Below are positions 1 to 48,384 of a stretch of DNA of 64,000 nucleotides, piece after piece. A program made the translations under genes and the position numbers. Each line of letters starts with the position of its first letter. The first letter of the stretch is position 1. The stretch spans positions 1 to 64,000 of the forward strand of contig OX337230.1 in NCBI GenBank assembly GCA_946965045.2, read 5' to 3'. A model generated the notes under the pieces. That model worked only from the letters and a program-made list of their open reading frames with translations. It was not told the origin of the DNA and searched no databases. This stretch comes from Epithemia pelagica (taxonomy: Eukaryota > Protista > Bacillariophyta).

Positions 1-552
1 CCCTAACCCTAACCCTAACCCTAACCCTAACCCTAACCCTAACCCTAACCCTAACCCTAACCCTAACCCTAACCCTAACCCTAACCCTAACCCTAACCCT
101 AACCCTAACCCTAACCCTAACCCTAACCCTAACCCTAACCCTAACCCTAACCCTAACCCTAACCCTAACCCTAACCCTAACCCTAACCCTAACCCTAACC
201 CTAACCCTAACCCTAACCCTAACCCTAACCCTAACCCTAACCCTAACCCTAACCCTAACCCTAACCCTAACCCTAACCCTAACCCTAACCCTAACCCTAA
301 CCCTAACCCTAACCCTAACCCTAACCCTAACCCTAACCCTAACCCTAACCCTAACCCTAACCCTAACCCTAACCCTAACCCTAACCCTAACCCTAACCCT
401 AACCCTAACCCTAACCCTAACCCTAACCCTAACCCTAACCCTAACCCTAACCCTAACCCTAACCCTAACCCTAACCCTAACCCTAACCCTAACCCTAACC
501 CTAACCCTAACCCTAACCCTAACCCTAACCCTAACCCTAACCCTAACCCTAA
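1..552 (+). repeat. Telomere, (CCCTAA)92
   Basis: Perfect CCCTAA hexamers from base 1 to 552; unique sequence starts tgttgttctg at 553. Confidence 0.99.
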
Positions 553-1359
553 TGTTGTTCTGAACACGTGTATGTGGCACTAGGCCCAAAGAGTTTGTGC
601 AATGTCCTCAATATCTCCCCATCCGTCAAGTCTCGTTTCATGGTCACTGATTCTTTCCCAACAGACTTTTCACCCAGTGCTTTATGATATGTCTCGAACA
701 AGTCTTCTTTTGCAGCTACATTGCTTGACCCATAATGGTCACGATGTGTTATGAGGCTGTGACCTGACTGTTCAGCCACAGTCTTGGTTGTGTACTGATT
801 CTGGATCGACATTTCATCAAACTCCGGGAAAAGAATATTAGAGATTGATGTCCACAAGTGCCTTACTTGTGTGCAATCCGGTCGGTTTTCGAAGCCAAAG
901 ATTGTTGCCACAGCATCGGTCATCTCGTGTACCCTGTTATTTCTCACTGGTACAAGTCTCCACAAGTCATGCTTCAGCTGTGACTGAAGGTGTTGACATA
1001 CAACTCTGAAGACCAAAAATATGCGTCCAAGTGACTTGGGTAGCTTGTGTTCAACAAGCTTTCCAGGTTTGTTGTTGAGTGCAGTGTATACTTTCTCGGT
1101 GTGACTGTAATAGTAGCATTGTTGGCCATGCCAACGAATGCTACTAAACAGACACCTTTCAATTTCTGCATATCGCATGGAGCCCAACCCTGTTCCGTGG
1201 AATGCAAGTTCCAAGAATGATACCAGAATATCAACAGATGTTGCATTGAAGGCATGGTGCACTTGAATCACTTCAGATGTTATGATAGAAGATTCTTTCT
1301 CGACCTGAAGAGACACCAATCCAGAAGATGGAGCCAAATTGACGTACAAGTGCAAATTT
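553..1359 (-). mobile_element. Family A YR-helicase element, copy A1 (internal fragment, telomere-capped)
   Basis: Near-identical to 2299-3104 (A2). Encodes the recombinase-like core (SMRYAEI, QVRHLW, SGHSLITHRDHY) and stops at a TAG formed by the first telomeric repeat (ORF 549..1448). Confidence 0.85.
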
Positions 1360-4243
1360 CCACAATGACAGAGTGACATCTCCCATTCTCGTTGCCAACC
1401 AGGGCCACAGTAGTCGATACCAAGATAGGAAACCGAGCTGCTGCCCACTCCTTTGCAATTCGATGTTGCTCAGCCGTAGGTGATTCGGAGGTCACAAACT
1501 CCACGGTACCAAAATTCAATTTCTGAATGGCCTCTGTTACTTCTTGTCCAATCCGCTTTGTTGAGACAATAATATGCATTGCATACCTCATGGGAGTATA
1601 TTTATTCATGGTCGAAGTCACAAAAAGAAGCAAGCTCTGTAAAATTTTGGGACGAATGACAATAGAGAACCTGAAACTCTTTGGGAAAGTTCCCAAAACA
1701 TTGTCTGCATATCCGATTGTCATATCTTTGAGATCTTGTCTTTGAGTCATTGACATGTATCTCATAAGACTTGGCAATAAAAACCGTGGGAGGGACCCAC
1801 TCAAGGTCATGACGGGCACTCCGTAGCGAACAAGACGTGGAAGGCAATCAAATTTGGACCGAAAGGAAAGCTCCGAGTAAATTGTGTGAACCTCATCAAT
1901 TATGATTTTGGCCAAAGCTGACTTCTCCACCCACTCTTCTATAGTAGAGGAATGATATTTCTCCAATATCCATATGGCCTCGAGACTGAAGAAAACAATG
2001 TCTGGCAACATTTTGAAGTCATGGAGACCATCAGGCAGTCGGTCTGCCGTAACTTGATTGCCTGAAACTGTCATGGAAGACACTTCCACACCTGATGGCA
2101 AGTTGCGTGATACTTGTTCTTCATGGTAACCAGATAAAAATTTGTAGGGCACGACTACCATATAGGTCTTGGGAGCCAAGTGATGTAGCTTGGCTCCTAC
2201 CACCGGGACTAACCATGATAGTGACTTGCCACCTCCACATGGTAAACCAAAGTGTCCATGACATGTGCTTTCTCTCGATGCAAAAGCCAACATGGCGTGT
2301 TGTTCTGAACACGTGTATGTGGCACTAGGCCCAAAGAGTTTGTGCAATGTCCTCAATATCTCCCCATCCGTCAAGTCTCGTTTCATGGTCACTGATTCTT
2401 TCCCAACAGACTTTTCACCCAGTGCTTTGTGATATGTCTCGAACAAGTCTTCTTTTGCAGCTACATTGCTTGACCCATAATGGTCACGATGTGTTATGAG
2501 GCTGTGACCTGACTGTTCAGCCACAGTCTTGGTTGTGTACTGATTCTGGATCGACATTTCATCAAACTCCGGGAAAAGAATATTAGAGATTGATGTCCAC
2601 AAGTGCCTTACTTGTGTGCAATCCGGTCGGTTTTCGAAGCCAAAGATTGTTGCCACAGCATCGGTCATCTCGTGTACCCTGTTATTTCTCACTGGTACAA
2701 GTCTCCACAAGTCATGCTTCAGCTGTGACTGAAGGTGTTGACATACAACTCTGAAGACCAAAAATATGCGTCCAAGTGACTTGGGTAGCTTGTGTTCAAC
2801 AAGCTTTCCAGGTTTGTTGTTGAGTGCAGTGTATACTTTCTCGGTGTGACTGTAATAGTAGCATTGTTGGCCATGCCAACGAATGCTACTAAACAGACAC
2901 CTTTCAATTTCTGCATATCGCATGGAGCCCAACCCTGTTCCGTGGAATGCAAGTTCCAAGAATGATACCAGAATATCAACAGATGTTGCATTGAAGGCAT
3001 GGTGCACTTGAATCACTTCAGATGTTATGATAGAAGATTCTTTCTCGACCTGAAGAGACACCAATCCAGAAGATGGAGCCAAATTGACGTACAAGTGCAA
3101 ATTTAGGTTGAGGAAATCAGTCCATTGGTCACCAACCAGAAGAGTTCTGAAAGATGAAATACACTTTTCTTCAATACATGGTACAACATTCGTCCAAATA
3201 TCAAATTTAAAAAGGAAGTTGTCAACCAATATATCTTTTGTGGTTCGAATGGACACTTTCCGGGAAGATGGCATAAGTGCTTCTTTTTCGCGCATGCGTC
3301 GAATGGAACTTGCCAAGAAATTGATTGTTATGGATTCCTGTGCCCGTTTTACTAGAGTCAAGGCCTGTTGAGAATAATCTTTGTCCATTTTGTAGATCAA
3401 GGAACATATACTCGCCCTTAGAATGGTGAGCAGAGCGGAATACATTGTTGCGATACGTGATGGGCCCAGTACGGACAATGACCCTGCGGTGTCCTTATGC
3501 TGCAAAGTCCGGCCAACCGCATAAGTCATGAGCATAGTATGGTGCCTGACAGAGTCAGGTGTCTCGAGACACAGATCAACAAGTAATGACTGTAAGTCAC
3601 ATTCTCTCTTCATAATGGATGGCTGCTGCTTGTGGATGAAGCACAACAATTTCTTGAGCTCTGGAACAAGTCGGTTTGGAAACTTGGTGAATGTGTTGGT
3701 CGTATTTGCTCCAGCATGTGACCCACTTTCCCTTGTACCATCAAATACCAAAAGCTTCGACCGAAAATTTGCTGGGACCATTTTCACATGAATTGGAGCG
3801 CCATGCAACAACCACTTCTCTCCAAAATCATAGAAAAACTTGAGTATGGGTTCGTTGACTTCATCTTTGCCGCTAGTGGTTGTCAGAGAAAGCAAATTTT
3901 CCATCCGTTCTTGAAAGGTTGCTCCATCTGGCTTGGAAGAGTAGTGTTCCTCCTGAGCCAATGGATGAAACAAAGGAACAAAACAATCAACCATCTCCTC
4001 AGATACCATATGGAAAGTTTGGGTGACCGCTCTCTTTGTTTTCAAGATTGGATCCTCTTGGGAATATTTCATACTGACAGCAGTCATAGATACCAGCAAC
4101 CCTAACCCTAACCCTGCAAATCCATCGATTGTCATCACTATGACTTCGGGCAAGTCATCCCGTGCAAACCAGTTGGGCCAATTCTCATGACATAGATCGT
4201 TCTTTGCCAACATCTCGACGCATAAACCATCATGCAAACCCAA
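1280..4243 (-). CDS. Tyrosine-recombinase-like domain + SF2 (RecQ-like) helicase, family A; chimeric at both ends, lacks helicase motif VI
   Basis: YR-like FHGTGLGSMRYAEI, TEKVY, QVRHLW, GH-x8-Y (GHSLITHRDHY). Helicase motifs I GLPCGGGKS, Ia VVVPYKFL, II IIDEVH, III TLSGSLP, V ILVSTTVALVG. The first ~49 aa come from B1 plus a telomere linker and the last ~27 aa from A1. Confidence 0.8.
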   Translation of the reverse strand: MGLHDGLCVEMLAKNDLCHENWPNWFARDDLPEVIVMTIDGFAGLGLGLLVSMTAVSMKYSQEDPILKTKRAVTQTFHMVSEEMVDCFVPLFHPLAQEEHYSSKPDGATFQERMENLLSLTTTSGKDEVNEPILKFFYDFGEKWLLHGAPIHVKMVPANFRSKLLVFDGTRESGSHAGANTTNTFTKFPNRLVPELKKLLCFIHKQQPSIMKRECDLQSLLVDLCLETPDSVRHHTMLMTYAVGRTLQHKDTAGSLSVLGPSRIATMYSALLTILRASICSLIYKMDKDYSQQALTLVKRAQESITINFLASSIRRMREKEALMPSSRKVSIRTTKDILVDNFLFKFDIWTNVVPCIEEKCISSFRTLLVGDQWTDFLNLNLHLYVNLAPSSGLVSLQVEKESSIITSEVIQVHHAFNATSVDILVSFLELAFHGTGLGSMRYAEIERCLFSSIRWHGQQCYYYSHTEKVYTALNNKPGKLVEHKLPKSLGRIFLVFRVVCQHLQSQLKHDLWRLVPVRNNRVHEMTDAVATIFGFENRPDCTQVRHLWTSISNILFPEFDEMSIQNQYTTKTVAEQSGHSLITHRDHYGSSNVAAKEDLFETYHKALGEKSVGKESVTMKRDLTDGEILRTLHKLFGPSATYTCSEQHAMLAFASRESTCHGHFGLPCGGGKSLSWLVPVVGAKLHHLAPKTYMVVVPYKFLSGYHEEQVSRNLPSGVEVSSMTVSGNQVTADRLPDGLHDFKMLPDIVFFSLEAIWILEKYHSSTIEEWVEKSALAKIIIDEVHTIYSELSFRSKFDCLPRLVRYGVPVMTLSGSLPRFLLPSLMRYMSMTQRQDLKDMTIGYADNVLGTFPKSFRFSIVIRPKILQSLLLFVTSTMNKYTPMRYAMHIIVSTKRIGQEVTEAIQKLNFGTVEFVTSESPTAEQHRIAKEWAAARFPILVSTTVALVGNENGRCHSVIVEICTCTSIWLHLLDWCLFRSRKNLLS
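1360..4097 (-). mobile_element. Family A YR-helicase element, copy A2 (truncated at both ends)
   Basis: Shares sequence with A1 and A3. Proximal end abuts (AACCCT)3. Distal end breaks after helicase motif V and joins A1. Confidence 0.85.
4098..4115 (+). repeat. Interstitial telomeric remnant (AACCCT)3
   Basis: aaccctaaccctaaccct lies between A2 and B1 and is absent from the uninterrupted A (near 13170) and B (near 7383) copies. Confidence 0.92.
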
Positions 4244-6780
4244 AGTTTGTGATGCCTTTCCAAGAGGGCTTTGACTTTGACCATTTGATAGCTAGCCAAG
4301 AAGTTGTAGGGCACAAGAAACATGTTGGTCGAAGTCTTCAGTCCTCGAATGGATTCCACCACACAACGCACCAAGATGTTCATGGTTTTGCCCGATCCAC
4401 AAGGTTGAAGCATAAGTTTATGTCTTCCCGGTGAATTGGTGCACATATCAATTGCTGTTTCTTGATTGCCTCGGAATGTTGCCTCTTCATTACCCAACAA
4501 CAATCGTAATGCTTCTAACCGATGCTGACGTCTTGTTATTGTCAGCTGATGGCATACCGAGTCCACGATCATACATTTGGTACCGATGTAACGATGAAAT
4601 CGGGCATAGTAGATCTCATGACTGTTGCTCACGCGTGTCTGGTAGTTGGACATTGCAGTCTGTTGGGAGTGCTTACTCAACTCACTCAATGCCGTTGAAG
4701 AGACCAATGCCTGACTGTTGCTGTCTGGAAAGAGCAAGTTCACAAGAGAAGTCCAGAACTGTCGAACAACCACCGAACCAGGACGACTATCCAAGCTGAA
4801 AATCTCTTGGGCAACATCCTCAAAGAAAAACCTCCGGTCATTACCATATTGTGGAAAAAATCTCCTTGCATTGGGCCCATTCCAAACTTTCAGCACCACA
4901 ACTCTGTAGAGAAATAGACACCTTGCTATGATCCGAGGCATCTTGTGTTCAACGGGGGGTCGATCATGAGCTTGCAGTTTGGGTTGTTTACGACTCGGTG
5001 CAGAAACATATAAATCTTGGTAGTTTGTATTTTTCCACCGAAGCTGAGTCACATCGAGACAATGGACCTCTGAGAACCGATCTGCACCATAGCCAAAACC
5101 ATGGATGGCAAATTCCATCAAGGCAGTTAGTCGTTCGAACTGACTTTTCACCAGTTCCTTGCATTCCAAATCTTGTGTGTTGGTACCATCTGGCAGCGAT
5201 CCCAAACCCTTGGACCACTCCACAATAGTCAAGTCACCATCTAAGCAGAGGAATTTCTCGTATGCCTTTCCGACAAAGCATGCATCAAAAATACCATGGG
5301 CCTTTTCCACAACCGTAGGAACAACCTTAGACCAATGCGCTTTTTGGAACGCATGTCCATCAACAATAATATTGAAGAACTCATCGACCACAACCTCCCT
5401 TTTAGGAGGCTTCTCTTGATATTGTTTCCTCAAAGAATAAATCTTAGGACAGAGAAAGTGTATTGTAGGACAATGTCTGTACCGTTCCATGACCTGCTCG
5501 ACCAACTTGCCCTGCCCATCGTAGTATTTTAAGCCAGCCGCAACCCCACAGCGAAGCAGATGTAAAAGGTCAGCTAGAAAGAGATGAAAGAAGACATGAG
5601 ATTTGAACAACCAAGTATATTCATTGACAGGGGGAAAGGGGGACTCACCAAGTTCTTGAGCGGCAACTCCACATGATTTCAACCTCAAGCCATTCTTCGT
5701 CTTAGTGAACAACCTCTGCCGAGAGAACAGTAACACTACCCCTGAGTCGGACCAACAATAAATCTCACTGTCGAGTACCAACTCTGTCAGGAGTGACCCA
5801 AGAACACAATTTTGGAATGCAGTGTCCACAGAGAATCCATCACCTTCAACCTGGCGGCAAAAATAGTCCCATCTCTTCCACTGCCTCTGATGCAGGAAAC
5901 ACAAGAGAGAGAGGAGTAGAGGTTTCACTCGTTTGTCATAATCATGTCGATGGCTGAAATTCCATGAGTGATCCACATCACCATCATGGAAAGCAAACTT
6001 AGCAATCCGACTCCGAATGTCTGCTGGAATCCCCATTACGATCGAAGCCATCCTGTCCAGAAGGTAACAACCAACCTGATAGAGTCGGTTGATTGCAGTG
6101 TTATTTCCTCTCTTATGATACTCGGCTTCAAACATAATTCCTTGTGCAATGTCTCCAAGGGCATTCTCCAACGTGCCAGGAATCATATTACTCAGTACAT
6201 CGGGCCACCTTCCCAAAGTGTCGCTTGGATGCAATAATGGTTCAATCGAACTTGCAAACTCGTTGGGTAACCTGCTGCAGGGCAGCGGCATGCTAAATGT
6301 TGAATTCTCAACTTGAATTATTGTGGTCCAGTTGGTTTCTTGCTGCATGGTTTCTCTTGGGGGCCTTGGCATGAAGCATCCACACTTCAGCTTGAGGAAA
6401 GTCTTGGCAATGACTTTGGCACTAGCGCAACAACCAGCGACGTGCTTCTTGCACAAAAGCTTCACATGAAACATCTTGTCACAGTCACTACAGAAATACT
6501 TGATTCTTGTATCATTTGACTCATGAATGAAACAATCAAACGGTTGGTTGTTGGCATTCTCCACAAGAGTGTGTATTTTGTTACCAAGATGTCTCCCAGG
6601 AAAGCGAAAGGACACCCCATGAATTTTGGAGCAGGTCTTGGCGTGGCGGGCAAGACATTTCATGTTTGCTCGGAAACCACCACCACAGAGCTTACAGACC
6701 AAGCCACAGGGTGTGGCAAAGTCCACAAGCCCCAAGTAATCGTCAAACTCCATGGTGGCTGTTGTCGTTCCTATGGTCAA
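4138..6780 (-). CDS. Zn-finger + tyrosine-recombinase-like + helicase N-part, family B; predicted 75-nt intron 5574-5648
   Basis: C2H2-like CKLC..RHAKTC and CSDC..KHVAGC; IHGFGYGADRFSEV, VEHKMP, VRQFW, KH-x8-Y (KHSQQTAMSNY); Walker A QPCGSGKT; GTGAGT...TTTCTAG intron. Confidence 0.8.
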   Translation of the reverse strand: MTIGTTTATMEFDDYLGLVDFATPCGLVCKLCGGGFRANMKCLARHAKTCSKIHGVSFRFPGRHLGNKIHTLVENANNQPFDCFIHESNDTRIKYFCSDCDKMFHVKLLCKKHVAGCCASAKVIAKTFLKLKCGCFMPRPPRETMQQETNWTTIIQVENSTFSMPLPCSRLPNEFASSIEPLLHPSDTLGRWPDVLSNMIPGTLENALGDIAQGIMFEAEYHKRGNNTAINRLYQVGCYLLDRMASIVMGIPADIRSRIAKFAFHDGDVDHSWNFSHRHDYDKRVKPLLLSLLCFLHQRQWKRWDYFCRQVEGDGFSVDTAFQNCVLGSLLTELVLDSEIYCWSDSGVVLLFSRQRLFTKTKNGLRLKSCGVAAQELGESPFPPVNEYTWLFKSHVFFHLFLADLLHLLRCGVAAGLKYYDGQGKLVEQVMERYRHCPTIHFLCPKIYSLRKQYQEKPPKREVVVDEFFNIIVDGHAFQKAHWSKVVPTVVEKAHGIFDACFVGKAYEKFLCLDGDLTIVEWSKGLGSLPDGTNTQDLECKELVKSQFERLTALMEFAIHGFGYGADRFSEVHCLDVTQLRWKNTNYQDLYVSAPSRKQPKLQAHDRPPVEHKMPRIIARCLFLYRVVVLKVWNGPNARRFFPQYGNDRRFFFEDVAQEIFSLDSRPGSVVVRQFWTSLVNLLFPDSNSQALVSSTALSELSKHSQQTAMSNYQTRVSNSHEIYYARFHRYIGTKCMIVDSVCHQLTITRRQHRLEALRLLLGNEEATFRGNQETAIDMCTNSPGRHKLMLQPCGSGKTMNILVRCVVESIRGLKTSTNMFLVPYNFLASYQMVKVKALLERHHKLWVCMMVYASRCWQRTIYVMRIGPTGLHGMTCPKS

Positions 6781-6944
6781 AATAGGTTTGGGACGTATGA
6801 CCCTTTGCAGCCAAAAAAGAGGCCCTAAAGAGGGTCATTCACCTGAAAAACTGAAAAGGCCCTAACACCAGAGATCATTCACCTCAAAATCTTTGAGCGA
6901 CAAGAAGGAATATGGTTTACTATGGAGAGTTAATGTAGGTTTGC

Positions 6945-7094
6945 AAATCGACCTTCTTGTGGTCGAAATCGACCTTTTTGTGGTCGCACTAAAATTTCGC
7001 ACGCAACAATACAGTGATTCAAAATTGACCTTTTTGTGGTCGCGCATGTGAATCTACAGAATGAACTTAGTGCGCACGACAAAAAGGTCGATTT
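6945..7094 (+). repeat. Subterminal repeats of family B: three direct ~21-bp copies plus one inverted copy
   Basis: aaatcgacctt(c/t)ttgtggtcg at 6945, 6966 and 7022 (the third begins aaatt); inverted cgacaaaaaggtcgattt at 7077-7094. The same layout occurs at the other three B termini. Confidence 0.9.
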
Positions 7095-7107
7095 CTAGCA
7101 AAACCCT

Positions 7108-10100
7108 TAGGGTTCTCTCCCGAGAGATAATCCGACAGTCCGTGATATGCAGAACCACTCAAATCGAGGAAGTCCATCAATTTCTGACCAAAACTCATCG
7201 AAATACTTCCAGACATCAGTGTTACGGCGACTCCAAGTGCAGATATTTCCCGTAGACAAGAATAGCATGGACGGAAGTCGACCTCTGTAACGATGGTTTG
7301 TGCCTCATCGACAAAAATCCCATTCAACTTTCCATTGGAGCACCATCCAGAAAGTTTTGTTAGATGGTCTTTGAAGAAGGTCGCAAATCCATCGATTGTC
7401 ATCACTATGACTTCGGGCAAGTCATCCCGTGCAAACCAGTTGGGCCAATTCTCATGACATAGATCGTTCTTTGCCAACATCTCGACGCATAAACCATCAT
7501 GCAAACCCAAAGTTTGTGATGCCTTTCCAAGAGGGCTTTGACTTTGACCATTTGATAGCTAGCCAAGAAGTTGTAGGGCACAAGAAACATGTTGGTCGAA
7601 GTCTTCAGTCCTCGAATGGATTCCACCACACAACGCACCAAGATGTTCATGGTTTTGCCCGATCCACAAGGTTGAAGCATAAGTTTATGTCTTCCCGGTG
7701 AATTGGTGCACATATCAATTGCTGTTTCTTGATTGCCTCGGAATGTTGCCTCTTCATTACCCAACAACAATCGTAATGCTTCTAACCGATGCTGACGGCT
7801 TGTTATTGTCAGCTGATGGCATACCGAGTCCACGATCATACATTTGGTACCGATGTAATGATGAAATCGGGCATAGTAGATCTCATGACTGTTGCTCACG
7901 CGTGTCTGGTAGTTGGACATTGCAGTCTGTTGGGAGTGCTTACTCAACTCACTCAATGCCGTTGAAGAGACCAATGCCTGACTGTTGCTGTCTGGAAAGA
8001 GCAAGTTCACAAGAGAAGTCCAGAACTGTCGAACAACCACCGAACCAGGACGACTATCCAAGCTGAAAATCTCTTGGGCAACATCCTCAAAGAAAAATCT
8101 CCGGTCATTACCATATTGTGGAAAAAATCTCCTTGCATTGGGCCCATTCCAAACTTTCAGCACCACAACTCTGTAGAGAAATAGACACCTTGCTATGATC
8201 CGAGGCATCTTGTGTTCAACGGGGGGTCGATCATAAGCTTGCAGTTTGGGTTGTTTACGACTCGGTGCAGAAACATATAAATCTTGGTAGTTTGTATTTT
8301 TCCACCGAAGCTGAGTCACATCGAGACAATGGACCTCTGAGAACCGATCTGCACCACAGCCAAAACCATGGATGGCAAATTCCATCAAGGCAGTTAGTCG
8401 TTCGAACTGACTTTTCACCAGTTCCTTGCATTCCAAATCTTGTGTGTTGGTACCATCTGGCAGCGATCCCAAACCCTTGGACCACTCCACAATAGTCAAG
8501 TCACCATCTAAGCAGAGGAATTTCTCGTATGCCTTTCCGACAAAGCATGCATCAAAAATACCATGGGCCTTTTCCACAACCGTAGGAACGACCTTAGACC
8601 AATGCGCTTTTTGGAACGCATGTCCATCAACAATGATATTGAAGAACTCATCGACCACAACCTCCCTTTTAGGAGGCTTCTCTTGATATTGTTTCCTCAA
8701 AGAATAAATCTTAGGACAGAGAAAGTGTATTGTAGGACAATGTCTGTACCGTTCCATGACCTGCTCGACCAACTTGCCCTGCCCATCGTAGTATTTTAAG
8801 CCAGCCGCAACCCCACAGCGAAGCAGATGTAAAAGGTCAGCTAGAAAGAGATGAAAGAAGACATGAGATTTGAACAACCAAGTTTATTCATTGACAGGGG
8901 GAAAGGGGGACTCACCGAGTTCTTGAGCGGCAACTCCACATGATTTCAACCTCAAGCCATTCTTCGTCTTAGTGAACAACCTCTGCCGAGAGAACAGTAA
9001 CACTACCCCTGAGTCGGACCAACAATAAATCTCACTGTCGAGTACCAACTCTGTCAGGAGTGACCCAAGAACACAATTTTGGAATGCAGTGTCCACAGAG
9101 AATCCATCACCTTCAACCTGGCAGCAAAAATAGTCCCATCTCTTCCACTGCCTCTGATGCAGGAAACACAAGAGAGAGAGGAGTAGAGGTTTCACTCGTT
9201 TGTCATAATCATGTCGATGGCTGAAATTCCATGAGTGATCCACATCACCATCATGGAAAGCAAACTTAGCAATCCGACTCCGAATGTCTGCTGGAATCCC
9301 CATTACGATCGAAGCCATCCTGTCCAGAAGGTAACAACCAACCTGATAGAGTCGGTTGATTGCAGTGTTATTTCCTCTCTTATGATACTCGGCTTCAAAC
9401 ATAATTCCTTGTTCAATGTCTCCAAGGGCATTCTCCAACGTGCAAGGAATCATATTACTCAGTACATCGGGCCACCTTCCCAAAGTGTCGCTTGGATGCA
9501 ATAATGGTTCAATCGAACTTGCAAACTCGTTGGGTAACCTGCTGCAGGGCAGCGGCATGGTGAATATTGAATTCTCAACTTGAATTATTGGGGTCCAGTT
9601 GGTTTCTTGCTGCATGGTTTCTCTTTGGGGCCTTGGCATGAAGCATCCACACTTCAGCTTGAGGAAAGTCTTGGCAATGACTTTGGCACTAGCGCAACAA
9701 CCAGCAACGTGCTTCTCGCACAAAAGCTTCACATGAAACATCTTGTCACAGTCACTACAGAAATACTTGATTCTTGTATCATTTGACTCATGAATGAAAC
9801 AATCAAACGGTTGGTTGTTGGCATTCTCCACAAGAGTGTGTATTTTGTTACCAAGATGTCTCCCAGGAAAGCGAAAGGACACCCCATGAATTTTGGAGCA
9901 GGTCTTGGCGTGGCGGGCAAGACACTTCATGTTTGCTCGGAAACCACCACCACAGAGCTTACAGACCAAGCCACAGGGTGTGGCAAAGTCCACAAGCCCC
10001 AAGTAATTGTCAAACTCCATGGTGGCTGTTGTCGTTCCTATGGTCAAAATAGGTTTGGGACGTATGACCCTTTGCAGCCAAAAAAGAGGCCCTAAAGAGG

Positions 10101-10379
10101 GTCATTCACCTGAAAAACTGAAAAGGCCCTAACACCAGAGATCATTCACCTCAAAATCTTTGAGCGACAAGAAGGAATATGGTTTACTATGGAGAGTTAA
10201 TGTAGGTTTGCAAATCGACCTTCTTGTGGTCGAAATCGACCTTTTTGTGGTCGCACTAAAATTTCGCACGCAACAATACAGTGATTCAAAATTGACCTTT
10301 TTGTGGTCGCGCATGTGATTCTACAGAATGAACTTAGTGCGCACGACAAAAAGGTCGATTTCTAGCAAAACCCTTAGGG
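7108..10379 (-). mobile_element. Family B element, copy B2 (longest; reaches helicase motifs II-III)
   Basis: ORFs 8884..10047 and 7405..8877 are joined across intron 8841-8915. A second frame (ORF 7067..7510) carries IFVDEAQ and TLMSGSI. Terminus CCCTTAGGG at 10371-10379. Confidence 0.87.
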
Positions 10380-10831
10380 TATTATGATTAGGGTTAATGT
10401 TATGAATAGAAGCACGGTCTTTCCCTGACTGGAATTGTGCGACCAAACCTTCTCTACAACCCCGCTGTTGAAAATGAATATACTAAAAAGTTAATTGTAC
10501 TGTGTGAATGGAATCTTAAGAAAAATTATCCTAAATTGCGTAGTCCTGTCCCCCTCCTCTTAATTTTTGTACATTCCGGGGGGACAGGAATCCGCAAATC
10601 ACGGTAGTCGAGCTAGGACTAACTAATAAGCATGGGCATAGGTATGACTAGAATAGGGCTGTTCTAGTGGGCTGTTCTGCAGTGGGACAGCAGGCTGCTC
10701 TGCAGTGGGACAGGGCACTTCTGCAGTGGGACAGAGGGCGGTTCTGCAGTGGGACAAGTGGGATGGGGGCTGTTCTGCAGTGGGACGCTAGAGTCTACGT
10801 AGGCCTACGGACAGGCACTTTCTCCTTAGGG
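10380..10831. mobile_element. Non-coding segment Y: degenerate TTAGGG-like units, a CTGCAGTGGGAC array and a CCTTAGGG end
   Basis: Following the B2 terminus: ttaggg/ta/ttatga/ttaggg/ttaatg. Five CTGCAGTGGGAC cores in ~10657-10787. The end is re-copied at 11248-11321. Confidence 0.6.
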
Positions 10832-11109
10832 TCATTCACCTCAAAAACTGAAAAGGCCCTAACACCAGAGATCATTCACCTCAAAATCTTTGAGCGACAA
10901 GAAGGAATATGGTTTACTATGGAGAGTTAATGTAGGTTTGCAAATCGAGCTTCTTGTGGTCGAAATCGACCTTTTTGTGGTCGCACTAAAATTTCGCACG
11001 CAACAATACAGTGATTCAAAATTGACCTTTTTGTGGTCGCGCATGTGATTCTACAGAATGAACTTAGTGCGCACGACAAAAAGGTCGATTTCTAGCAAAA
11101 CCCTTAGGG
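10828..11109 (-). mobile_element. Family B terminus-only fragment (~280 bp)
   Basis: Matches the B1 upstream region from agggtcattcacc (~6831) to CCCTTAGGG. Confidence 0.9.
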
Positions 11110-11250
11110 GCAGTGCTCTTTTGCAACAAAAGGCATATATATCATTGCTCATATGCACAGATACTATAGCCCCTTGTGCTCATATGCACACGTTCAAATC
11201 CTACGGTGTCTAGTACTAAAGACACCCAAAAAAGGCAAATATCCTTAGGG
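11106..11250 (-). mobile_element. Family A terminus-only fragment
   Basis: Matches 13971-14082, with ~30 bp extra; ends caaatatCCTTAGGG (11243-11250). Confidence 0.85.
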
Positions 11251-11321
11251 ACAAGTGGGATGGGGGCTGCTCTGCAGTGGGAGGCTAGAGTCTACCTAGG
11301 CCTACGGACAGGCACTTTCTC
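11248..11321. mobile_element. Segment Y terminal fragment
   Basis: gggacaagtgggatgggggc...ggacaggcactttctc matches ~10751-10824. Confidence 0.85.
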
Positions 11322-14082
11322 GGCACGACTACCATATAGGTCTTGGGAGCCAAGTGATGTAGCTTGGCTCCTCCCACCGGGACTAACCATGATAGTGACT
11401 TGCCACTTTCACATGGTAAACCAAAGTGTCCATGATATGTGCTTTCTCTCGATGCAAAAGCCAACATGGCGTGTTGTTCAGAACACGTGTATGTGGCACT
11501 AGGCCCAAAGAGTTTGTGCAATGTCCTCAATATCTCCCCATCCGTCAAGTCTCGTTTCATGGTCACTGATTCTTTCCCAACAGACTTTTCACCCAGTGCT
11601 TTGTGATATGTCTCGAACAAGTCTTCTTTTGCAGCTACATTGCTTGACCCATATTGGTCACGATGTGTTATGAGGCTGTGACCTGACTGTTCAGCCACAG
11701 TCTTGGTTGTGTACTGATTCTGGATCGACATTTCATCAAACTCCGGGAAAAGAATATTAGAGATTGATGTCCACAAGTGCCTTACTTGGGTGCAATCCGG
11801 CTGGTTTTCGAAGCCAAAGATTGTTGCCACAGCATCGGTCATCTCGTGTACCCTGTTATTTCTCACTGGTACAAGTCTCCGCAAGTCATGCTTCAGCTGT
11901 GACTGAAGGTGTTGACATACAACTCTGAAGACCAAAAATATGCGTCCAAGTGACTAGGGTAGCTTGTGTTCAACAAGCTTTCCAGGTTTGTTGTTGAGTG
12001 CAGTGTATACTTTCTCGGTGTGACTGTAATAGTAGCATTGTTGGCCATGCCAACGAATGCTACTAAACAGACACCTTTCAATTTCTGCATATCGCATGGA
12101 GCCCAACCCTGTTCCGTGGAATGCAAGTTCCAAGAATGATACCAGAATATCAACAGATGTTGCATTGAAGGCATGGTGCACTTGAATCACTTCAGATGTT
12201 ATGATAGAAGATTCTTTCTCGACCTGAAGAGACACCAATCCAGAAGATGGAGCCAAATTGACGTACAAGTGCAAATTTAGGTTGAGGAAATCAGTCCATT
12301 GGTCACCAACCAGAAGAGTTCTGAAAGATGAAATACACTTTTCTTCAATACATGGTACAACATTCGTCCAAATATCAAATTTAAAAAGGAAGTTGTCAAC
12401 CAATATATCTTTTGTGGTTCGAATGGACACTTTCCGGGAAGATGGCATAAGTGCTTCTTTTTCGCGCATGCATCGAATGGAACTTGCCAAGAAATTGATT
12501 GTTATTGATTCCTGTGCCCGTTTTACTAGAGTCAAGGCCTGTTGAGAATAATCTTTGTCCATTTTGTAGATCAAGGAACATATACTCGCCTCCGGCCAAC
12601 CGCATAAGTCATGAGCATAGTATGGTGCCTGACAGAGTCAGGTGTCTCGAGACACAGATCAACAAGTAATGACTGTAAGTCACATTCTCTCTTCATAATG
12701 GATGGCTGCTGCTTGTGGATGAAGCACAACAATTTCTTGAGCTCTGGAACAAGTCGGTTTGGAAACTTGGTGAATGTGTAGGTCGTATTTGCTCCAGCAT
12801 GTGACCCACTTTCCCTTGTACCATCAAATACCAAAAGCTTCGACCGAAAATTTGCTGGGACCATTTTCACATGAATTGGAGCGCCATGCAACAACCACTT
12901 CTCTCCAAAATCATAGAAAAACTTGAGTATGGGTTCGTTGACTTCATCTTTGCCGGTAGTGGTTGTCAGAGAAAGCAAATTTTCCATCCGTTCTTGAAAG
13001 GTTGCTCCATCTGGCTTGGAAGAGTAGTGTTCCTCCTGAGCCAATGGATGAAACAAAGGAACAAAACAATCAACCATCTCCTCAGATACCATATGGAAAG
13101 TTTGGGTGACCGCTCTCTTTGTTTTCAAGATTGGATCCTCTTGGGAATATTTCATACTGACAGCAGTCATAGATACCAGCCTCCCACAAGAAGTGACCTG
13201 TAATTGTTCCCTCTCAGGCCCAATGGCTCCACAGGAGTTAGGCGAGGAGAGATGACGCATAACATTGCTGAGTCTTGTCCAACCAACAAGACACCTGCAG
13301 GAATATCCAAGAACAGACCTCCCCGTGAAGAAGTTTTTTGCGGTATGAGGGTCTTCTTGCAAAATTTGCTCAAGGGACTGTTTTCTTGCAACAAGGAGTC
13401 GGTTGTCAGTTGCTGAGACACAGACTCCATGTTGATTTAGATGCCGCTGCATGGACCAAAGACTTTCTCCGAATGATTTCTTGCATATGCCGCATCCCAT
13501 ACCAAAGGGTGTCACAATTGTAGCATCTAAACATGACAAGCCAATGCCCTGATCGGAACGGATCTTCTTCACAGGCGGTCTCCGGGATGGAGATGGCGTT
13601 CCAGGCCCATTGTTGGTAGCCATTGCTGGTTTCCTCGTGTGCATGGAACAGAGGAAGAGACATAACCAGCCGACTCTCAAGCAAAAGCAAGGATGGGCCT
13701 CTTTGCAAGAGTCATATTTCATGAAACAACAATGACCTTTTGTTGGGCCAATTGAGGTTTTCAGGTGAAGATGTTGGGCCTATTGAGGTTTTCAGGTGAA
13801 GATGTTGGGCGCGAAGGGGCACGCAGGCGAGCTTTTCGCGCCAAAGAATGGGGGAACAACTAAGAGTGTGGTAATGGTTGGTAATGAATGAAATTAAGGA
13901 CTCATATTGAATATGAGTGCTTAGAAATTAGACTTGAGCGGGGCATAGACATTCTGTGCTCATCTGCACAAGGGGCAGTGCTCTTTTGCAACAAAAGGCA
14001 TATATATCAGTGCTCATATGCACAGATACTATAGCCCCTTGTGCTCATATGCACAACACCCAAAAAACACAAATATCCTTAG
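11322..14082 (-). mobile_element. Family A element, copy A3 (has N-terminus and promoter-side terminus; inactivated)
   Basis: ORF 12571..13722 gives the Zn-finger N-terminus (CGICKK..RHLNQH). There is a 91-bp deletion at 12590/12591 (equal to 3417-3507 of A2) and an AAG>TAG nonsense at 11954. It is truncated in helicase motif Ia and ends CCTTAG at 14077-14082. Confidence 0.87.
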
Positions 14083-15275
14083 AGGTTTCACTCGTTTGTC
14101 ATAATCATGTCGATGGCTGAAATTCCATGAGTGATCCACATCACCATCATGGAAAGAAAACTTAGCAATCCGACTCCGAATGTCTGCTGGAATCCCCATT
14201 ACGATCGAAGCCATCCTGTCCAGAAGGTAACAACCAACCTGATAGAGTCGGTTGATTGCAGTGTTATTTCCTCTCTTATGATACTTGGCTTCAAACATAA
14301 TTCCTTGTTCAATGTCTCCAAGGGCATTCTCCAACGTGTCAGGAATCATATTACTCAGTACATCGGGCCACCTTCCCAAAGTGTTGCTTGGATGCAATAA
14401 TGGTTCAATCGAACTTGCAAACTCGTTGGGTAACCTGCTGCAGGGCAGCGGCATGGTGAATATTGAATTCTCAACTTGAATTATTGGGGTCCAGTTGGTT
14501 TCTTGCTGCATGGTTTCTCTTTGGGGCCTTGGCATGAAGCATCCACACTTCAGCTTGAGGAAAGTCTTGGCAATGACTTTGGCACTAGCGCAACAACCAG
14601 CAACGTGCTTCTCGCACAAAAGCTTCACATGAAACATCTTGTCACAGTCACTACAGAAATACTTGATTCTTGTATCATTTGACTCATGAATGAAACAATC
14701 AAACGGTTGGTTGTTGGCATTCTCCACAAGAGTGTGTATTTTGTTACCAAGATGTCTCCCAGGAAAGCGAAAGGACACCCCATGAATTTTGGAGCAGGTC
14801 TTGGCGTGGCGGGCAAGACATTTCATGTTTGCTCGGAAACCACCACCACAGAGCTTACAGACCAAGCCACAGGGTGTGGCAAAGTCCACAAGCCCCAAGT
14901 TATCGTCAAACTCCATGGTGGCTGTTGTCGTTCCTATGGTCAAAATAGGTTTGGGACGTATGACCCTTTGCAGCCAAAAAAGAGGCCCTAAAGAGGGTCA
15001 TTCACCTGAAAAACTGAAAAGGCCCTAACACCAGAGATCATTCACCTCAAAATCTTTGAGCGACAAGAAGGAATATGGTTTACTATGGAGAGTTAGTGTA
15101 GGTTTGCAAATCGACCTTCTTGTGGTCGAAATCGACCTTTTTGTGGTCGCACTAAAATTTCGCACGCAACAATACAGTGATTCAAAATTGACCTTTTTGT
15201 GGTCGCGCATGTGATTCTACAGAATGAACTTAGTGCGCACGACAAAAAGGTCGATTTCTAGCAAAACCCTTAGGG
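14080..15275 (-). mobile_element. Family B element, copy B3 (5-prime third only; innermost unit)
   Basis: ORF 14029..14943 equals the B N-terminus up to DYDKRVKPL; terminus CCCTTAGGG at 15267-15275 abuts SF1 sequence. Confidence 0.88.
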
Positions 15276-16982
15276 ACGAGGAGGTTGCGTAGTTCCACTG
15301 GTAGTCGATGCTGCAGAGGGAGGTAAGGGTGGTGGCCCTTCCGGTGCAGGCGGCAAGGGTGGAAGGCTTCCATTGGGTGGTGGAGGTGGAAGTTTGTCCC
15401 CACCGTCATTTGATGTCGGTTCGTTGGCTGGCTGGTTGGCCTTTTAGCCATCCAGTTCAGCCATGAAAGAGAGATATTCAGAATCAATCTTTTGTTCACT
15501 TCCTTGTTGGTTGGCATCACCGCCCGCAGGATTGGTAGGGTCCAGATTGCGTCGCGTACAATCGCGTGTGGGATGACTAGTGTCACCACAAATGGCACAC
15601 TTGATGCCTCCCCCCCCCCCCCCCATGGCACCCTTGTTAAGGAATCGTTTGGGACATTCAAAGGATCGATGTCCTTTCTCACCACAAATTTCGCAAAAGG
15701 CATCATTTTCCTTCAATGTACCATTCAAGAGGGCCAATTCTCGAAGCTGCTGTTGTTTGTGCACATTCTTTTCATCGTCAATGACGACGAGCATTTGTTC
15801 AATCATCTCCGATGCCGCATCCACAGCACGTTGATCATCTCCCGAAATGGCCACATGCAAGGGTTCATTGTCTCCGTCCATGACTTTACCATCCCGGCGA
15901 CCACAAGCTCCCTCCTTGACCGATCCCCGACCGCGAATGGCAATTTTGCAGCCCGTCTTGGCTTCCAATTCTTTTTGCGTCTTGCCTCGTGGTCCAATGA
16001 TTAATCCAATAAAATTGTAGTTCGGATGTTCTTCTACGGGTACTCGAATCTTTTTGACTCGCCGTCGTACCAATAAGGAAGCCGCCCCCGTTGGTAACAC
16101 GGGTCAAACGTTGCCCTTGTTGGATAACCGCATGATACTTTCCAACAAGTCTTGACGCTCCGCCGTGTATCGTTCCCTCCAACGGACCGCTTGTGTATTT
16201 TTTCGTTTCCCATCAGCACCGTAAACTAGAGACGTATAGAAACAAGAAAAAGATGGTAAGGTACAAGAAACATGGAATGGACTCTTGTTCGAACCCCAAA
16301 AGGCAACACAAAAGTCGATTGTGAGCAAACGATTATACTTACTTGGAGGCGGCGAAGGCGATCGATCTCGATGTTCTCGTGGGAGCGCTTACACTTCTAG
16401 ATTTTCCAGACGATCGTTCACGGCACGAAGCTTGGCTTGCTTGGTTCGGAGATCCTGTTGTTGCTGCTGCGTCAAGTTGGTGTTGACCAAGGACATGCTA
16501 GGCAATACGACACAAGGTGGTTGTCGTGAGGATTGGACTGGTGGCAGGGGAGCGAATCGTTTGTTCACAGGAGGATCCGACTGGCCATTCGAAGGTTCGG
16601 ATGCCGCTTTGCCCCATCGCGATTTTCGTTTGCGGGGAGCCTCTCCAGCAGTGCCATTGTTATTGGTGTCGCTCTCAATTTTGACGGCAACTCCTCCGGG
16701 ACGATTTTCTTGTTGTTGCATTGCCTTGAGATATTCCTTCCGAGTTTCCTTCCATCCTGGCCAATTCAGGACTTCTTTCCACATGGAGGGATACGGACCG
16801 TACTTGTCCTGTAGCATTCGTGTCACCGGGCTGTGGTTGTGGCTGCTGTTGTACCACTCTTTCATTTTCACATGCTCATTTCGCACCGTCACCACAAACT
16901 CTGCTGCTTCCTCACTGTCTTGACCCATTGTGCGTTGTGTCACATCCTGCAAGGTGAAATTATTCAGTTCCAATTGATGCAA
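15270..16982 (-). pseudogene. SF1: Splicing factor 1 / branchpoint-binding protein with three in-frame stops; intron 16226-16342
   Basis: RKRKSRW (ULM), RSPSPPP, YGADGKRKNT, KH-QUA2 PNYNFIGLIIGPRGKTQKELEAKTGCKIAIRGRGSVKEG, two CCHC knuckles, YLSFMAEL and a Pro-rich tail, all in one frame. Stops are TAA 16389-91, TGA 16104-06 and TAA 15444-46. Confidence 0.9.
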
Positions 16983-20139: not shown

Positions 20140-20629
20140 AGCTTTCCCTTGACGACGAACCACCTACCGAAAACAGAGACGAACTCAAATGCAACTCTTG
20201 GATTTGGCACTGGCGGCTCTTCGAGGGTTGCATCGCATCCATCACGATCGCAGGGCAGTCGTGGAAAACACTCTGGTGGCACAATCCCTGGAGCAACTTC
20301 ATGCGGAACAAGACAAGGATCAGGGCAAACCAAACAGTTTTTGGCAAACAACCGTCAAGGGCATTGTCAACTTTTTGACCGGTCGTGCACAAAAAGAAGA
20401 AGAAGAAGCAGACTCTGAATCGAAACCAGACGACAATCCCAAAAACTCCAAATCGGATACGGCGATTCACGAGTATACCAAAGTGGGACAATCCACCACT
20501 CTCAACGTGTTGCGACCCATGCTCTTTTCGTTTGCCCGTTTGCTCCAAGCTCAACAACCACATCGTCGTAATCTACTCCGACAGGAATTGGATTCACCTT
20601 GCCCAGAATATTGTCGAGAGGTTTCGGAA
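20140..20629 (+). repeat. ~490-bp duplication, copy 1 (copy 2 at 22965-23453)
   Basis: Near-identical from agctttcccttgacgacgaacc to ttgtcgagagg(t/c)ttcggaa; encodes the same LDLALAALRGLHRIHHD.. frame. Confidence 0.9.
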
Positions 20630-20838: not shown

Positions 20839-21062
20839 TTCAGCGGGTAGGGAAGCGGAGGAATCAATGGATTCTCCAGGGGCAACTATGGCACTCTTCC
20901 CCAATGGCAACCGACACACCAACAAGGACATCTCCGACAAGGACTCTAGCTAGACTCAGCTGATGTAGGAGTAGGAAGTTATTCACAAATACAGCGGGTA
21001 GGGAAGCCCGGAGGAATCAATGGATTCTCCAGGGGCAACTATGGCACTCTTCCCCAATGGCA
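20839..21062 (+). repeat. Modular direct repeats (two ~70-bp copies plus modules shared with ~48385-48555)
   Basis: cagcgggtagggaagc(c)ggaggaatcaatggattctccaggggcaactatggcactcttccccaatggca occurs twice; the ccgacaaggactctagctagactcagctgatgtaggagtagg module also occurs at ~48510. Confidence 0.85.
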
Positions 21063-22430
21063 CAGAGACCGAAGTCTCCATGCCATACGCCATACCTGAT
21101 GACACAAGGACAAAGTCCTCGTGCCACCAGGGTTTTGTGATAACACCGACAACCGACACACCAACAAGACAAGGACTCTAGCTAGATAGACTCAGCTGAA
21201 GTAGAATTTAGGAGTAGGAATCTGTAGAAACAGAAGAAGGGGTAGAGTGAGTTAGGATGAGTAGGAAAGATTCATTACCGTGCGCACGTACCACTGGCAA
21301 CCGACAACCGACAAGTTATTTTTCTTTCTTTTTCTGTTTTTTTTTATTTTTTTTCTTTTTCTGGGTTTTTTGGATTTTTTTCAACAGCACCACTACAAGT
21401 AGCCGAACCCCGTACCCGCGGACAAAAGACGAGCGGATCGTCGAACGTGCACCATTCGGCGTCCCTTTTTGGAGTAGGCAACAACAAGGATCCTGCCCAA
21501 ACGCGGCGAGTCCTCGGGGCCGGAGGAACTCTCGATCACGCTTTGGGGGGCATTCTCATCGATTTGAGGCGAGGTATCTTTTCGGGTGGGGGTGGGGGGA
21601 GGAGGGGTGGCGACCATGGAAGAAGGGGTAGGATTTCGAGGGGGTGAGTCGTGCCCCAAAGTGATTTCGTCGTCGTCGTCGGGGATGAGCGCGGGTTCAG
21701 GCTCAGAACGGTCGACTGGAGGGGTCTCCTCGTCGTCCTCGAGATCCTCTGCGAGTGCGAGAGGAGGGAAGTCCAAGTCAGCGTCGAACTCGCAAGGCAG
21801 AACAGCAACAGTGTCGACGTCGACCTCCTCCTCGCGATCGCGAATCTCGATCTCTCCATCTTCCTGACGACCGGCAAGCTTTTCTTCTTCCTGACGACCA
21901 TTCTCGCAGTTCTTCGCAGCAAGCTTTGCTTCGGCAATGGCCAGCTGCTGTTGAAGCTGAGCTTTGTCGTGTCGAAGCTGTCGAAGCTCCGCATGTTCGT
22001 GTCGAGGCTCCGCAGTTTCGCTACTTGTAGTACGACTTTTCTTGCTGAAAATGACCCGAAGCAGGTGTTGGACTATTAGTTTCGCCTCATCGAGGACATC
22101 AGCGACACCGTAACACAGTATGAGAGTCACGAAGGGAGCAACTAACAGAGCCCATTCGGAGCTGATCATCTTTTCGTAACAGTAATCACAATCACACATC
22201 ATCATGGTCAATCGTATTTCGTTCGTCGTTTGTTTTTGTGCGTGTTGGATTGTTGCGTGTTGTTGGCGTTTCGTGTTGATTGGCGAAGCTGCGGGGCAGC
22301 GGGGTCGGTTTAACACAGCGCAACAATCAACCGTCGGGGCAGTCTTGCACGCACCTCTACGGCAACAACACGTTCCTCGAGGGCAACGGAGTTCGGCGCA
22401 ACAATCAACCGTCGGGTGCAGTTCCACAAC
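21059..22430 (-). repeat. Dispersed repeat R, copy 1 (carries ORF)
   Basis: Colinear with 48385-49960 in the same orientation, with small indels. Confidence 0.85.
21393..22205 (-). CDS. Hypothetical protein: Cys-rich start, one TM helix, coiled coil, acidic/Pro region, C-terminal VRRSARL motif
   Basis: Within ORF 21393..22490; likely start MMMCDCDYC; TM WALLVAPFVTLILCYGVA; paralog at 48609-49711. Confidence 0.55.
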   Translation of the reverse strand: MMMCDCDYCYEKMISSEWALLVAPFVTLILCYGVADVLDEAKLIVQHLLRVIFSKKSRTTSSETAEPRHEHAELRQLRHDKAQLQQQLAIAEAKLAAKNCENGRQEEEKLAGRQEDGEIEIRDREEEVDVDTVAVLPCEFDADLDFPPLALAEDLEDDEETPPVDRSEPEPALIPDDDDEITLGHDSPPRNPTPSSMVATPPPPTPTRKDTSPQIDENAPQSVIESSSGPEDSPRLGRILVVAYSKKGRRMVHVRRSARLLSAGTGFGYL

Positions 22431-22776: not shown

Positions 22777-24201
22777 GTGAAACTCTTAACACGACATGGT
22801 CGGGCGCTTCTGAAGCAAGGTGACTTTGATGGTGCCTCCAAATCATTCGACGAAGCGATTTGCAAGGCGCAAGTTGCCATTGAAAAGAGTGCCGTGGTGC
22901 ACAGTCGAGAGGACCATATGATTCGAGTCCTTTGTGCGAGATGGGGCTGTGTCGTCCAAACCAAAGCTTTCCCTTGACGACGAACCACCTACCGAAAACA
23001 GAGACGAACTCAAATGCAACTCTTGGATTTGGCACTGGCGGCTCTTCGAGGGTTGCACCGCATCCATCACGATCGTAGGGTAGTCATGGAAAACACTCTG
23101 GTGGCACAATCCCTGGAGCAACTTCATGCGGAACAAGACAAGGATCAGGGCAAACCAAACAGTTTTTGGCAAACAACCGTCAAGGGCATTGTCAACTTTT
23201 TGACCGGTCGTGCACAAAAAGAAGAAGAAGAAGCAGACTCTGAATCGAAACCAGACGACAATCCCAAAAACTCCAAATCGGATACGGCGATTCACGAGTA
23301 TACCAAAGTGGGACAATCCACCACTCTCAACGTGTTGCGACCCATGCTCTTTTCGTTTGCCCGTTTGCTCCAAGCTCAACAACCACATCGTCGTAATCCA
23401 CTCCGGCAGGAATTGGATTCACCTTGCCCGAATATTGTCGAGAGGCTTCGGAACGCTTTATCGAGCTCTTGGACATTGCACTCAAACAAGATCCCACCTT
23501 TACCATTTTGGATGCCTCGCAAACCGAAAAAGTCCTCCAGTTCCTCTGTCTGGGTGGTACCTTGAACAGTGCAAACATCTGCTCTGCCATTATTATGCGA
23601 CACACCCAAATCCGATCGAAACTCTGTCAGTGACGTGGAATTTGTCATGGCCTTGCTGGATTCGTCCATGTCCAAGTCGGAGTCATTAACCAGCACCTCG
23701 CAACATACGACGCTGCTCACCCTCATTTCTCCTCCGCAAGTGGGACAACACTTTACGACATGGCTGGCGCACTTGTAGCTGCGAACCCTGATTGGGTGTA
23801 CAAGTAAAAGGAGCCGACTACAAACGTGTCCTATGGGCTTATTGGCAAGAAGCTAAGCAAAAAGGAGAAACGCCCCCAGAGGAACTATATTGGTCCAAGA
23901 AAGCATGGGATCTCTTGGTAAAAATGGACAGTCTTACCACTTCCCTGTTAATGAATGCCACCGAGGTTCGAAGGTCGAAATGCTGTACGATATCGATGAT
24001 CCACCGTCACATCACGCCTATGAGATTGTTTTGAACATTATCTGCGAAGAAATTGGTTCCAATGGCGAACCGGCAACACTGCTGTTTTTGAAAGTGCTTG
24101 CCCTGGCCGAACGGAACAAGGTCGATCTGAGTCATTGGAAACTGAATCGCATGCCGGATTGGGTCATGTCGTCGGGGAAACAAGGGACCGAAACCAGTTG
24201 A
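22777..24201 (+). pseudogene. Frameshifted helical-repeat (TPR-like) gene remnant
   Basis: GRALLKQGDFDGASKSFDEAI is TPR-like; the coding signal continues across several frames to 24201. Confidence 0.35.
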
Positions 24202-48382: not shown

Positions 48383-48384
48383 CT

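Follow-up and report, generated by a model that had tools for sequence, protein, structure and literature searches.

How does a chromosome end come to consist of truncated copies of the same few elements, nested in one another and repeatedly joined through the same few nucleotides? This question is raised by the first 64,000 nucleotides of a contig from the diatom Epithemia pelagica (OX337230.1, assembly GCA_946965045.2), hereafter called the window. The window is a left chromosome end, in which a terminal telomere, (CCCTAA)92 (1-552, plus strand), is followed by element DNA (553-15275) and then by ordinary eukaryotic genes. The element DNA is a stack of fragments of three elements, A, B and Y, bounded by the telomere on one side and host DNA on the other. 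Every fragment is oriented toward the telomere, on the minus strand, and copies in the window are 99% identical. A and B encode zinc fingers, a tyrosine-recombinase-fold (YR) domain and a RecQ-like helicase. The joins at 7104-15275 are a real and highly non-random feature, and the stack was probably left by a one-ended recombinase transposon, an element that takes the place of the distal chromosome arm. This view is supported by the geometry of the junctions and the bias of the targets, by a host site found empty, by relatives that share the core, and by a predicted YR fold whose catalytic residues are conserved.

Joins at a fixed donor core

The sequence-only reading that preceded this analysis had placed a fixed terminus at seven junctions, and every motif was found exactly there: the B end at 7104, 10371, 11101 and 15267, the A end at 11243 and 14077, and the Y end at 10824. 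The bases common to the donor end and the native recipient are likewise those claimed, namely AGGG (10828, 11106), GGG (11248) and TAG (14080). CCTTAG occurs ten times on the plus strand of 553-15275 (the seven joins plus native interior copies at 3416, 5325 and 8592) compared with twice in the other 48.7 kb. An eighth join, at 11321/11322, equals the expected Y-to-A product minus CTTAG and falls on a native TAGGG, again as that reading had it.

From the inside out, the stack begins with the first 1196 bp of B (14080-15275), whose end (15267-15275, plus strand) is joined to host DNA; the empty allele has only AGGG in common with it (15272-15275). There follow 2761 bp of A (11322-14082), which have the fixed end at 14077-14082, a leader and an ATG at 13623 but also a 91-bp deletion and, near 11955, a point stop. 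Next are 74 bp from the end of Y (11248-11321), which meet A at 11321/11322 in a join that lacks exactly CTAAG; the first 145 bp of A (11106-11250), whose fixed end at 11243 is joined into Y; and the first 282 bp of B (10828-11109), whose fixed end at 11101 is joined into the A leader. The next unit is 455 bp of Y (10377-10831), the 5′ part of a multi-copy element, which has its own subterminal repeats, shows no open reading frame (ORF) in this part and natively continues left of 10377; its fixed end (10824-10831, minus strand) is joined into the B leader. Two longer copies of B come next. Copy 2 (3268 bp, 7112-10379) is joined into Y by its end at 10371-10379 (plus strand), where the native Y target reads CC|CATCA in the element sense and GGG is common to both. 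Copy 1 (2996 bp, 4116-7111) is joined inside the helicase of copy 2 by the B end CCCTTAGGG (7104-7112, plus strand); it possesses the fixed end, a leader with subterminal direct and inverted repeats, and an ORF from the ATG at 6753 that encodes zinc fingers, the YR domain and the start of the helicase. An 18-bp telomere relic, an internal piece of A, a duplicated internal piece of A and the telomere complete the series.

In the direction of the telomere the donor sequence is CC|CTAAG|G, of which CTAAG(G) is fixed. Each unit had been said to start with a telomeric hexamer; the motif is present, but as a property of the donor the hexamer does not stand, the CC before CTAAG being common to or supplied by the target. 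The join at 14077 reads CT|CTAAG in the element sense and thus retains the CT of its target, from which it follows that the fixed donor part starts at CTAAG and that CCCTAA is a composite. The three ends, described as unrelated, are so in their DNA, but elements A and B themselves are paralogous (27% identity over 420 amino acids). Each family has its own subterminal repeats, which are candidate binding sites. The telomere-side ends, reported to be all different, are not ends but the places where the next unit cut in. The single rule formulated earlier covers the seven joins and the eighth, but not those at 552/553, 1359/1360 and both sides of the tract 4098-4115.

Nine native targets are known at the DNA level, from the window, Y, the host site and joins in sequencing reads. 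The five in the window are CC|CTCTT, CC|CTTGT, CC|CACTG, CT|CTACT and CC|CTACA; the others are CC|CATCA (Y), CC|CTCCG (host site), and CC|CTGTG and CC|CTTGG (reads). They are short, as had been proposed, and better described as CC|C(T/A) than as telomere-like. CCC is present in eight of the nine, compared with 1.1% of positions in element DNA (binomial P ~3e-15). The donor core (AAG) is found at seven of eight termini, the 5 nt of the target at none. The proposed single-ended event, in which a fixed terminus becomes attached to a short target and all distal sequence is replaced, fits the evidence: not one of the eight displaced remainders is found further out in the window, and the empty host allele, present in sequencing runs X1-X3, continues into other DNA. 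No second terminus was seen in any of the eight units at the one chromosome end examined.

Runs X1-X3 belong to one study, represent at most two samples and carry fixed differences from the window, whereas X4 is a biofilm metagenome of another study. They yielded five new joins at B or Y ends, three of these from the biofilm metagenome. The B end is joined to another partner in X1-X3; Y-type ends are joined at AGGG in B in X1 and X4 (14871 and 14321); and X4 contains two more Y joins, at CCTTAG and CCTTAGGG. A non-rule join occurs at 14667 in X3, and X2 has a variant end, CCTCA, at 14792. No element end running into (TTAGGG)n was found among the loose ends listed (20 of 31 and 15 of 58), from which telomere-like contigs had possibly been filtered. 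A second TTAGGG is present at none of the seven window joins and none of the five read-derived ones.

Two joins bear on the register of the cut. At 11321/11322 and 12590/12591 the target runs up to CC or GA and the donor resumes, without ambiguity, just after CTAAG. The latter is the 91-bp deletion (12585-12596, minus strand), in which the target was cut before a native CT and the donor side is a cryptic interior CTAAG (3416-3421 in the other copy) cut after that motif. Interior CTAAG sites number seven in 7.3 kb, which gives an exact match by chance of ~1e-3 per break before correction. Since both joins lack exactly CTAAG, a 5-nt staggered cut is suggested, and trimming of both overhangs would explain the two products. 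At 11953-11960 one base differs from the other A copy, changing CC|CAAGT to CC|CTAGT, toward the donor core, and creating a stop; a truncated relative on another contig (P0012) breaks beside this site. The change could be an abortive footprint or chance. The string (C/T)CCTT| presumably resembles the site of vaccinia topoisomerase; the likeness was disregarded, since it is the CC|CTAAG|G register that the fixed bases fit.

The predicted recombinase and its relatives

Full-length proteins of A, B and a third family, C, comprise 1306-1421 amino acids. A profile of the middle domain matches 307 clusters at E<=0.001, and an alignment of 85 rows was assembled from 82 of the 150 listed matches together with A, B and C. 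Five residues are conserved in it: R541 (84/85), K568 (98%), R645 (85/85), H679 (85/85) and Y688 (84/85). In the outer A fragment the YR-fold domain lies at 2387-3370 (minus strand) and the invariant R, K, R, H and Y are residues 151, 178, 255, 289 and 298 of that stretch. Catalytic roles were assigned by order and motif. AlphaFold (AF2) modeling of the domain with 37 sequences returned a predicted local distance difference test (pLDDT) of 89.5 and a predicted template modeling score of 0.84; with a single sequence the pLDDT was 35. Tyrosine recombinases, type IB topoisomerases and derivatives of these account for all 28 of the best VIA rows, the first unrelated row having a Z of 4.6. XerA gave Z 9.1 and a root-mean-square deviation (rmsd) of 4.1 with 156 residues aligned, Cre Z 8.1 and rmsd 3.8 with 147; XerA, XerH, XerD and Cre together span Z 9.1-8.0 and rmsd 3.4-4.3 over 136-161 residues. 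The predicted recombinase of the element itself is the likely maker of the joins.

Walker A and DExH/Q motifs occur in 63 of the 70 matches with room downstream. Pfam finds DEAD in 28 of 28 proteins and Helicase_C in 27, and among solved structures in the Protein Data Bank (PDB) the helicase is closest to RECQL5, RecQ and BLM. The zinc fingers give weak Pfam C2H2 matches in relatives; in P0010 a C2H2 motif, Cx2Cx13Hx3H, was recognized by eye and fits the pattern Cx2-3Cx8-14Hx3-5H of fungal telomere-linked helicase (TLH) proteins. A DDE/TnsB transposase domain is absent from the element ORFs. Retrotransposition was rejected, there being no reverse transcriptase domain in the element ORFs scanned. 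DUF3504 and other Crypton YR Pfam families have no match in the 28 proteins at E<=0.01, a fold search of BFVD gave none at E<=0.001, and the YR profile found no sequence match in the PDB, a deeper profile matching helicases and zinc fingers only. Some relatives possess a C-terminal or separate TET/JBP-like 2OG-Fe dioxygenase domain (L001 3443-4396, L003 to 5312, P0052 and P0061), identified by an HxD...H motif and by PF20515 in P0061 (E 2.6e-4, below the cut-off), which is possibly a DNA base-modifying cargo.

After removal of seven proteins encoded by the window and five of full length, the 40 family proteins, in which the B cluster is represented by 15 of its 20 members, provide 28 relatives on other contigs, all of them truncated. 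Ten of the 28 truncated ORFs end in the translated A, B or Y end or a close variant of it. Among the 11 truncated proteins with no such tail, six stop at Pro, as expected of CCC TAA (P ~1e-6). At each of three targets, VLGP in A, EPYP in C and GENP in B, two different ends have struck. The target of the 7104 join was also struck by an A end on another contig (P0028), and the VVVP target of the eighth join was struck again on another (P0008, which ends in VVVP and a stop). The translated tail VRILT of P0031 resembles the A end, and the X2 reads at 14792 show CCTCAG; such variant ends may point to additional families whose cores differ.

Divergent relatives (30-38% identity to A) were found at four metagenome loci, L001-L004. 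At L002, CCCTAAGG lies 299 bp before a family ATG, with inverted repeats after the motif; at L003 it lies 46 bp after the last stop (5358-5378). Its presence at two of four loci compares with a mean of 0.14 in shuffled sequence, in which 1% of shuffles reach two. It was not found in L001 or L004, both of which are without upstream DNA. The element start after the last stop of L003 possibly reflects a circle or a head-to-tail array; the contig ends do not overlap. A second possible end in L002 (2512-2530) consists of CCTAAGT and a stretch resembling the A end, and a pair of inverted repeats of 63 nt (2671-3186) precedes the main end. A first metagenome scan found no relatives, and neither did two scans of viral contigs, a result with no bearing either way on episomes; a search of the range 1818-5000 amino acids gave no longer relatives.

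Mechanism, alternatives and the remaining features

We propose that the recombinase would bind the family-specific subterminal repeats, cut on both sides of the 5-nt core, and cut the target at CC|C. The donor, with a 5′-OH on CTAAG, would be ligated to the 3′ end of the target on the strand running toward the telomere, one or two paired bases serving as a guide. Completion of the other strand from the donor, by host repair or helicase-assisted copying, would yield products carrying the donor AAG; we infer this step because seven of eight termini carry that AAG and none the bases of the target. The helicase may help to copy or move the arm. There would be no second end, the far boundary being whatever lies distal and finally the telomere, and the stack would grow by repeated strikes inside earlier copies. 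Failed reactions might be blunted, with loss of 5 nt, and the joins outside the rule would come from telomere addition and ordinary repair. For its movement Y is likely to depend on an enzyme that a more distant part of Y encodes or that is provided in trans.

Several observations weigh against this reading. The targets match just three to four of seven donor bases; the 14077 join and P0003 deviate from the target rule; four joins in the window lie outside it; and 12 of the 28 truncations on other contigs are unexplained by it. The joins on those contigs are known from protein sequences alone, and the proteins probably come from the same assembly as the window. No contig from the compared runs bridges the joins of the window itself, and the upstream 570 bp of L003 do not contain CCCTAAGG. 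The 5-nt stagger is drawn from two joins, of which the deletion was recognized post hoc and is one of several breaks. With regard to the enzyme, the His of H-x-x-R is not conserved in the 85 rows (Thr in A, Val in B); Z scores of 8-9 are modest; Foldseek gives no match at E<=0.001 (best 0.023), type IB topoisomerase and Cre ranking first at E 0.02-0.1; and no Pfam YR family matches the 28 proteins.

The sequence-only reading had offered a YR crossover or the capture of a telomere-capped episome. The recombinase has gained from the fold, the catalytic residues and the two joins without the 5-nt core; plain capture has not. According to the latter, telomere-capped linear copies or flipped tips bearing 5′ (CCCTAA)n were caught at breaks by microhomology repair or break-induced replication, the YR not being the joiner. 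CCCTAA is the telomere repeat, a capped end would present the CCC found in the targets, the window contains both a telomere addition and an internal relic (552/553, 4098-4115), and the M. oryzae boundary CCTAACC is, in the passages available, the reverse complement of the repeat (PMC1635262). However, a second repeat is kept at none of the 12 joins from window and reads, one join keeps only TTAG and the variant end reads CCTCAG; CTAAG has been lost exactly on two occasions, once at an interior cryptic site, and the catalytic set is near-invariant. Capture is for these reasons quite improbable. If instead the YR recombined a resident end reciprocally with a target on a different chromosome, whole tips would be swapped by two strand exchanges and the helicase would be incidental. 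The same recipient junction is expected, and Crypton-mediated reciprocal translocations are on record in the available text of PMC9977147; yet a 3-nt heteroduplex should sometimes resolve to the bases of the target, which happened at none of eight termini, and a helicase is kept in 63 of the 70 relatives long enough to judge, making this scheme very unlikely.

An ordinary Crypton-like cycle, as modeled in the part of PMC3212892 available, would have the YR excise circles between an end and an internal CCC site and re-insert them, distal host parts being lost later by terminal truncation. It would account for the YR fold, the 5-nt core and the start of L003 46 bp after the last stop, as in a circle or head-to-tail junction. 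Insertion, though, would leave a remainder distal to the insert, and none of eight is present; neither break is the starting point of the distal A piece; no second boundary came to light, and the ends of L003 do not overlap. We consider it unlikely. Misassembly of near-identical repeats is hardly credible, even with copies 99% identical and no contig bridging the joins, since an assembler would not be expected to bring unrelated sequences together at one fixed core on CCC targets, and independent runs and divergent relatives show the same rule with different partners. The one-ended recombinase transposon remains the probable source of the stack.

The outermost units complete the picture of the chromosome end. 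The internal telomere relic, (AACCCT)3 (4098-4115, plus strand), lies at a non-rule join between truncated B and internal A; its three repeats cap the truncated B and mark an old end that healed and to which further DNA was afterwards added outside the rule. The internal A fragment (1360-4097, minus strand) lacks the 5′ end of the element and carries the YR-fold domain and a RecQ-like helicase, within which it breaks. Distal to it is a duplicated internal piece of A (553-1359, minus strand, equal to 2298-3104), joined to the telomere with no seed match. The duplication join at 1359/1360 breaks at TTT|AGG on the plus strand, the same register as CCTT|AGG, and its partner is without AGG.

Inward of the stack are host genes for SF1/BBP-like, GTPase, Josephin, TPR, GST and Kelch proteins. 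The SF1/BBP-like frame (15444-16103, minus strand) contains a KH domain and a zinc knuckle, and the B/host join lies ~170 bp beyond the stop, within a Pro-rich stretch (15276-15446) that continues in frame and is possibly coding. The idea that the join cut off a coding tail of SF1 was rejected, the frame stopping at 15444 in the window and none of the 11 letter differences of the X1 contig falling there. A dispersed 1.3-kb repeat is found at 21058-22342 and 48384-49866 (81-89% identity, no Pfam hit in its ORFs), and its first copy is flanked by a 490-bp direct repeat (98%) at 20140-20629 and 22965-23453.

Relation to known systems and significance

Fungal TLH proteins are described in the available passages of a study of F. 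oxysporum (bioRxiv 2024.02.27.582403) as consisting of C2H2 fingers, a ~250-amino-acid domain of undefined role and a RecQ helicase. The same passages record TLH genes from several fungi and one choanoflagellate, their function still being called undetermined in 2024. TLH region I of M. oryzae was shown in 2006 to have a sharp CCTAAC boundary, the mechanism of which is not given in the passages at hand (PMC1635262). On the basis of these descriptions, the elements of the window resemble TLH in anatomy. Both combine C2H2 fingers with a conserved domain that immediately precedes a RecQ helicase, both are associated with many chromosome ends and truncated variably on the telomere side, and both have multiple copies next to telomeres, linkage to a telomere being seen here at the end of the window and relatives on many contigs. 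The sharp inner boundary of TLH regions, which starts from the first or second C of CCTAACC and is followed by repeats, has the same register as CTAAG; TLH has (C)CTAAC where the seven window joins have the variant CTAAG. The position of the ~250-amino-acid domain is occupied in A and B by the YR domain. In contrast to TLH, to whose domain the passages assign no function and no mobility mechanism, the present system comprises Y and at least three protein families; its joins are nested, a rule describes the targets, an empty site is known, and the fold of the middle domain is predicted to be that of a YR.

In active Cryptons such as CryptonF-1, recombination takes place between targets and a 5-bp motif at the end of the element, and translocations result, as stated in the part of PMC9977147 available. 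A eukaryotic YR, a 5-bp end motif with short targets and rearrangements between ends and targets are thus common ground (PMC3212892 and PMC9977147, in the same partial form). Here, by comparison, one end only takes part, the helicase is fused and distal DNA is lost. Of the two termini that define a Crypton, the eight units at this chromosome end provide one; the fixed 5-nt core is present, and targets match the donor at 3-4 of 7 bases rather than being near-identical. Bacterial telomeric transposons likewise have one specific end, the telomere as the other boundary and replacement of native ends, but they employ TnsB/Tn7-type transposases with protelomerase or terminal proteins, bridge two ends and are not eukaryotic, according to bioRxiv 2024.11.13.623437. 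The literature searched, which covered sources other than subscription journals, Repbase/Dfam and bioRxiv supplements, yielded no listing that presents a YR-RecQ telomeric element or a recombinase role for TLH; the name 'Crypton-H' occurs as a label in four listings. The available passages of PMC9940879 and PMC8381367 add nothing further on a YR-helicase mechanism. The elements of the window are accordingly called TLH-like by likeness of build.

Yeast Y′ elements, which also occur as circles, are separated by telomeric tracts and not nested at CCC targets, and to our knowledge they have no recombinase domain. They resemble the present units in being helicase-coding, subtelomeric and in tandem, as the passages of PMC1635262 indicate.

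A broader proposal is offered tentatively, as one that may well prove wrong: TLH-type genes of fungi, choanoflagellates and this lineage might form a single unrecognized class of eukaryotic one-ended transposons. In these, a YR and a helicase would graft the element and its telomere onto new positions, the core CTAAG/CTAAC being tuned to telomere repeats (CC|CTAAC) as the best partner, with the possible release of telomere-capped linear copies. The window furnishes a donor core and a rule for its targets, together with a proposed register of cutting, an empty site and a tyrosine that is a candidate for catalysis, and makes the long-open question of TLH elements directly testable. If the reading of the stack as the work of a one-ended recombinase transposon is right, it would provide a new YR with loose target needs and eukaryotic transposons that truncate and re-cap chromosomes, and thereby drive subtelomere turnover and terminal gene loss.

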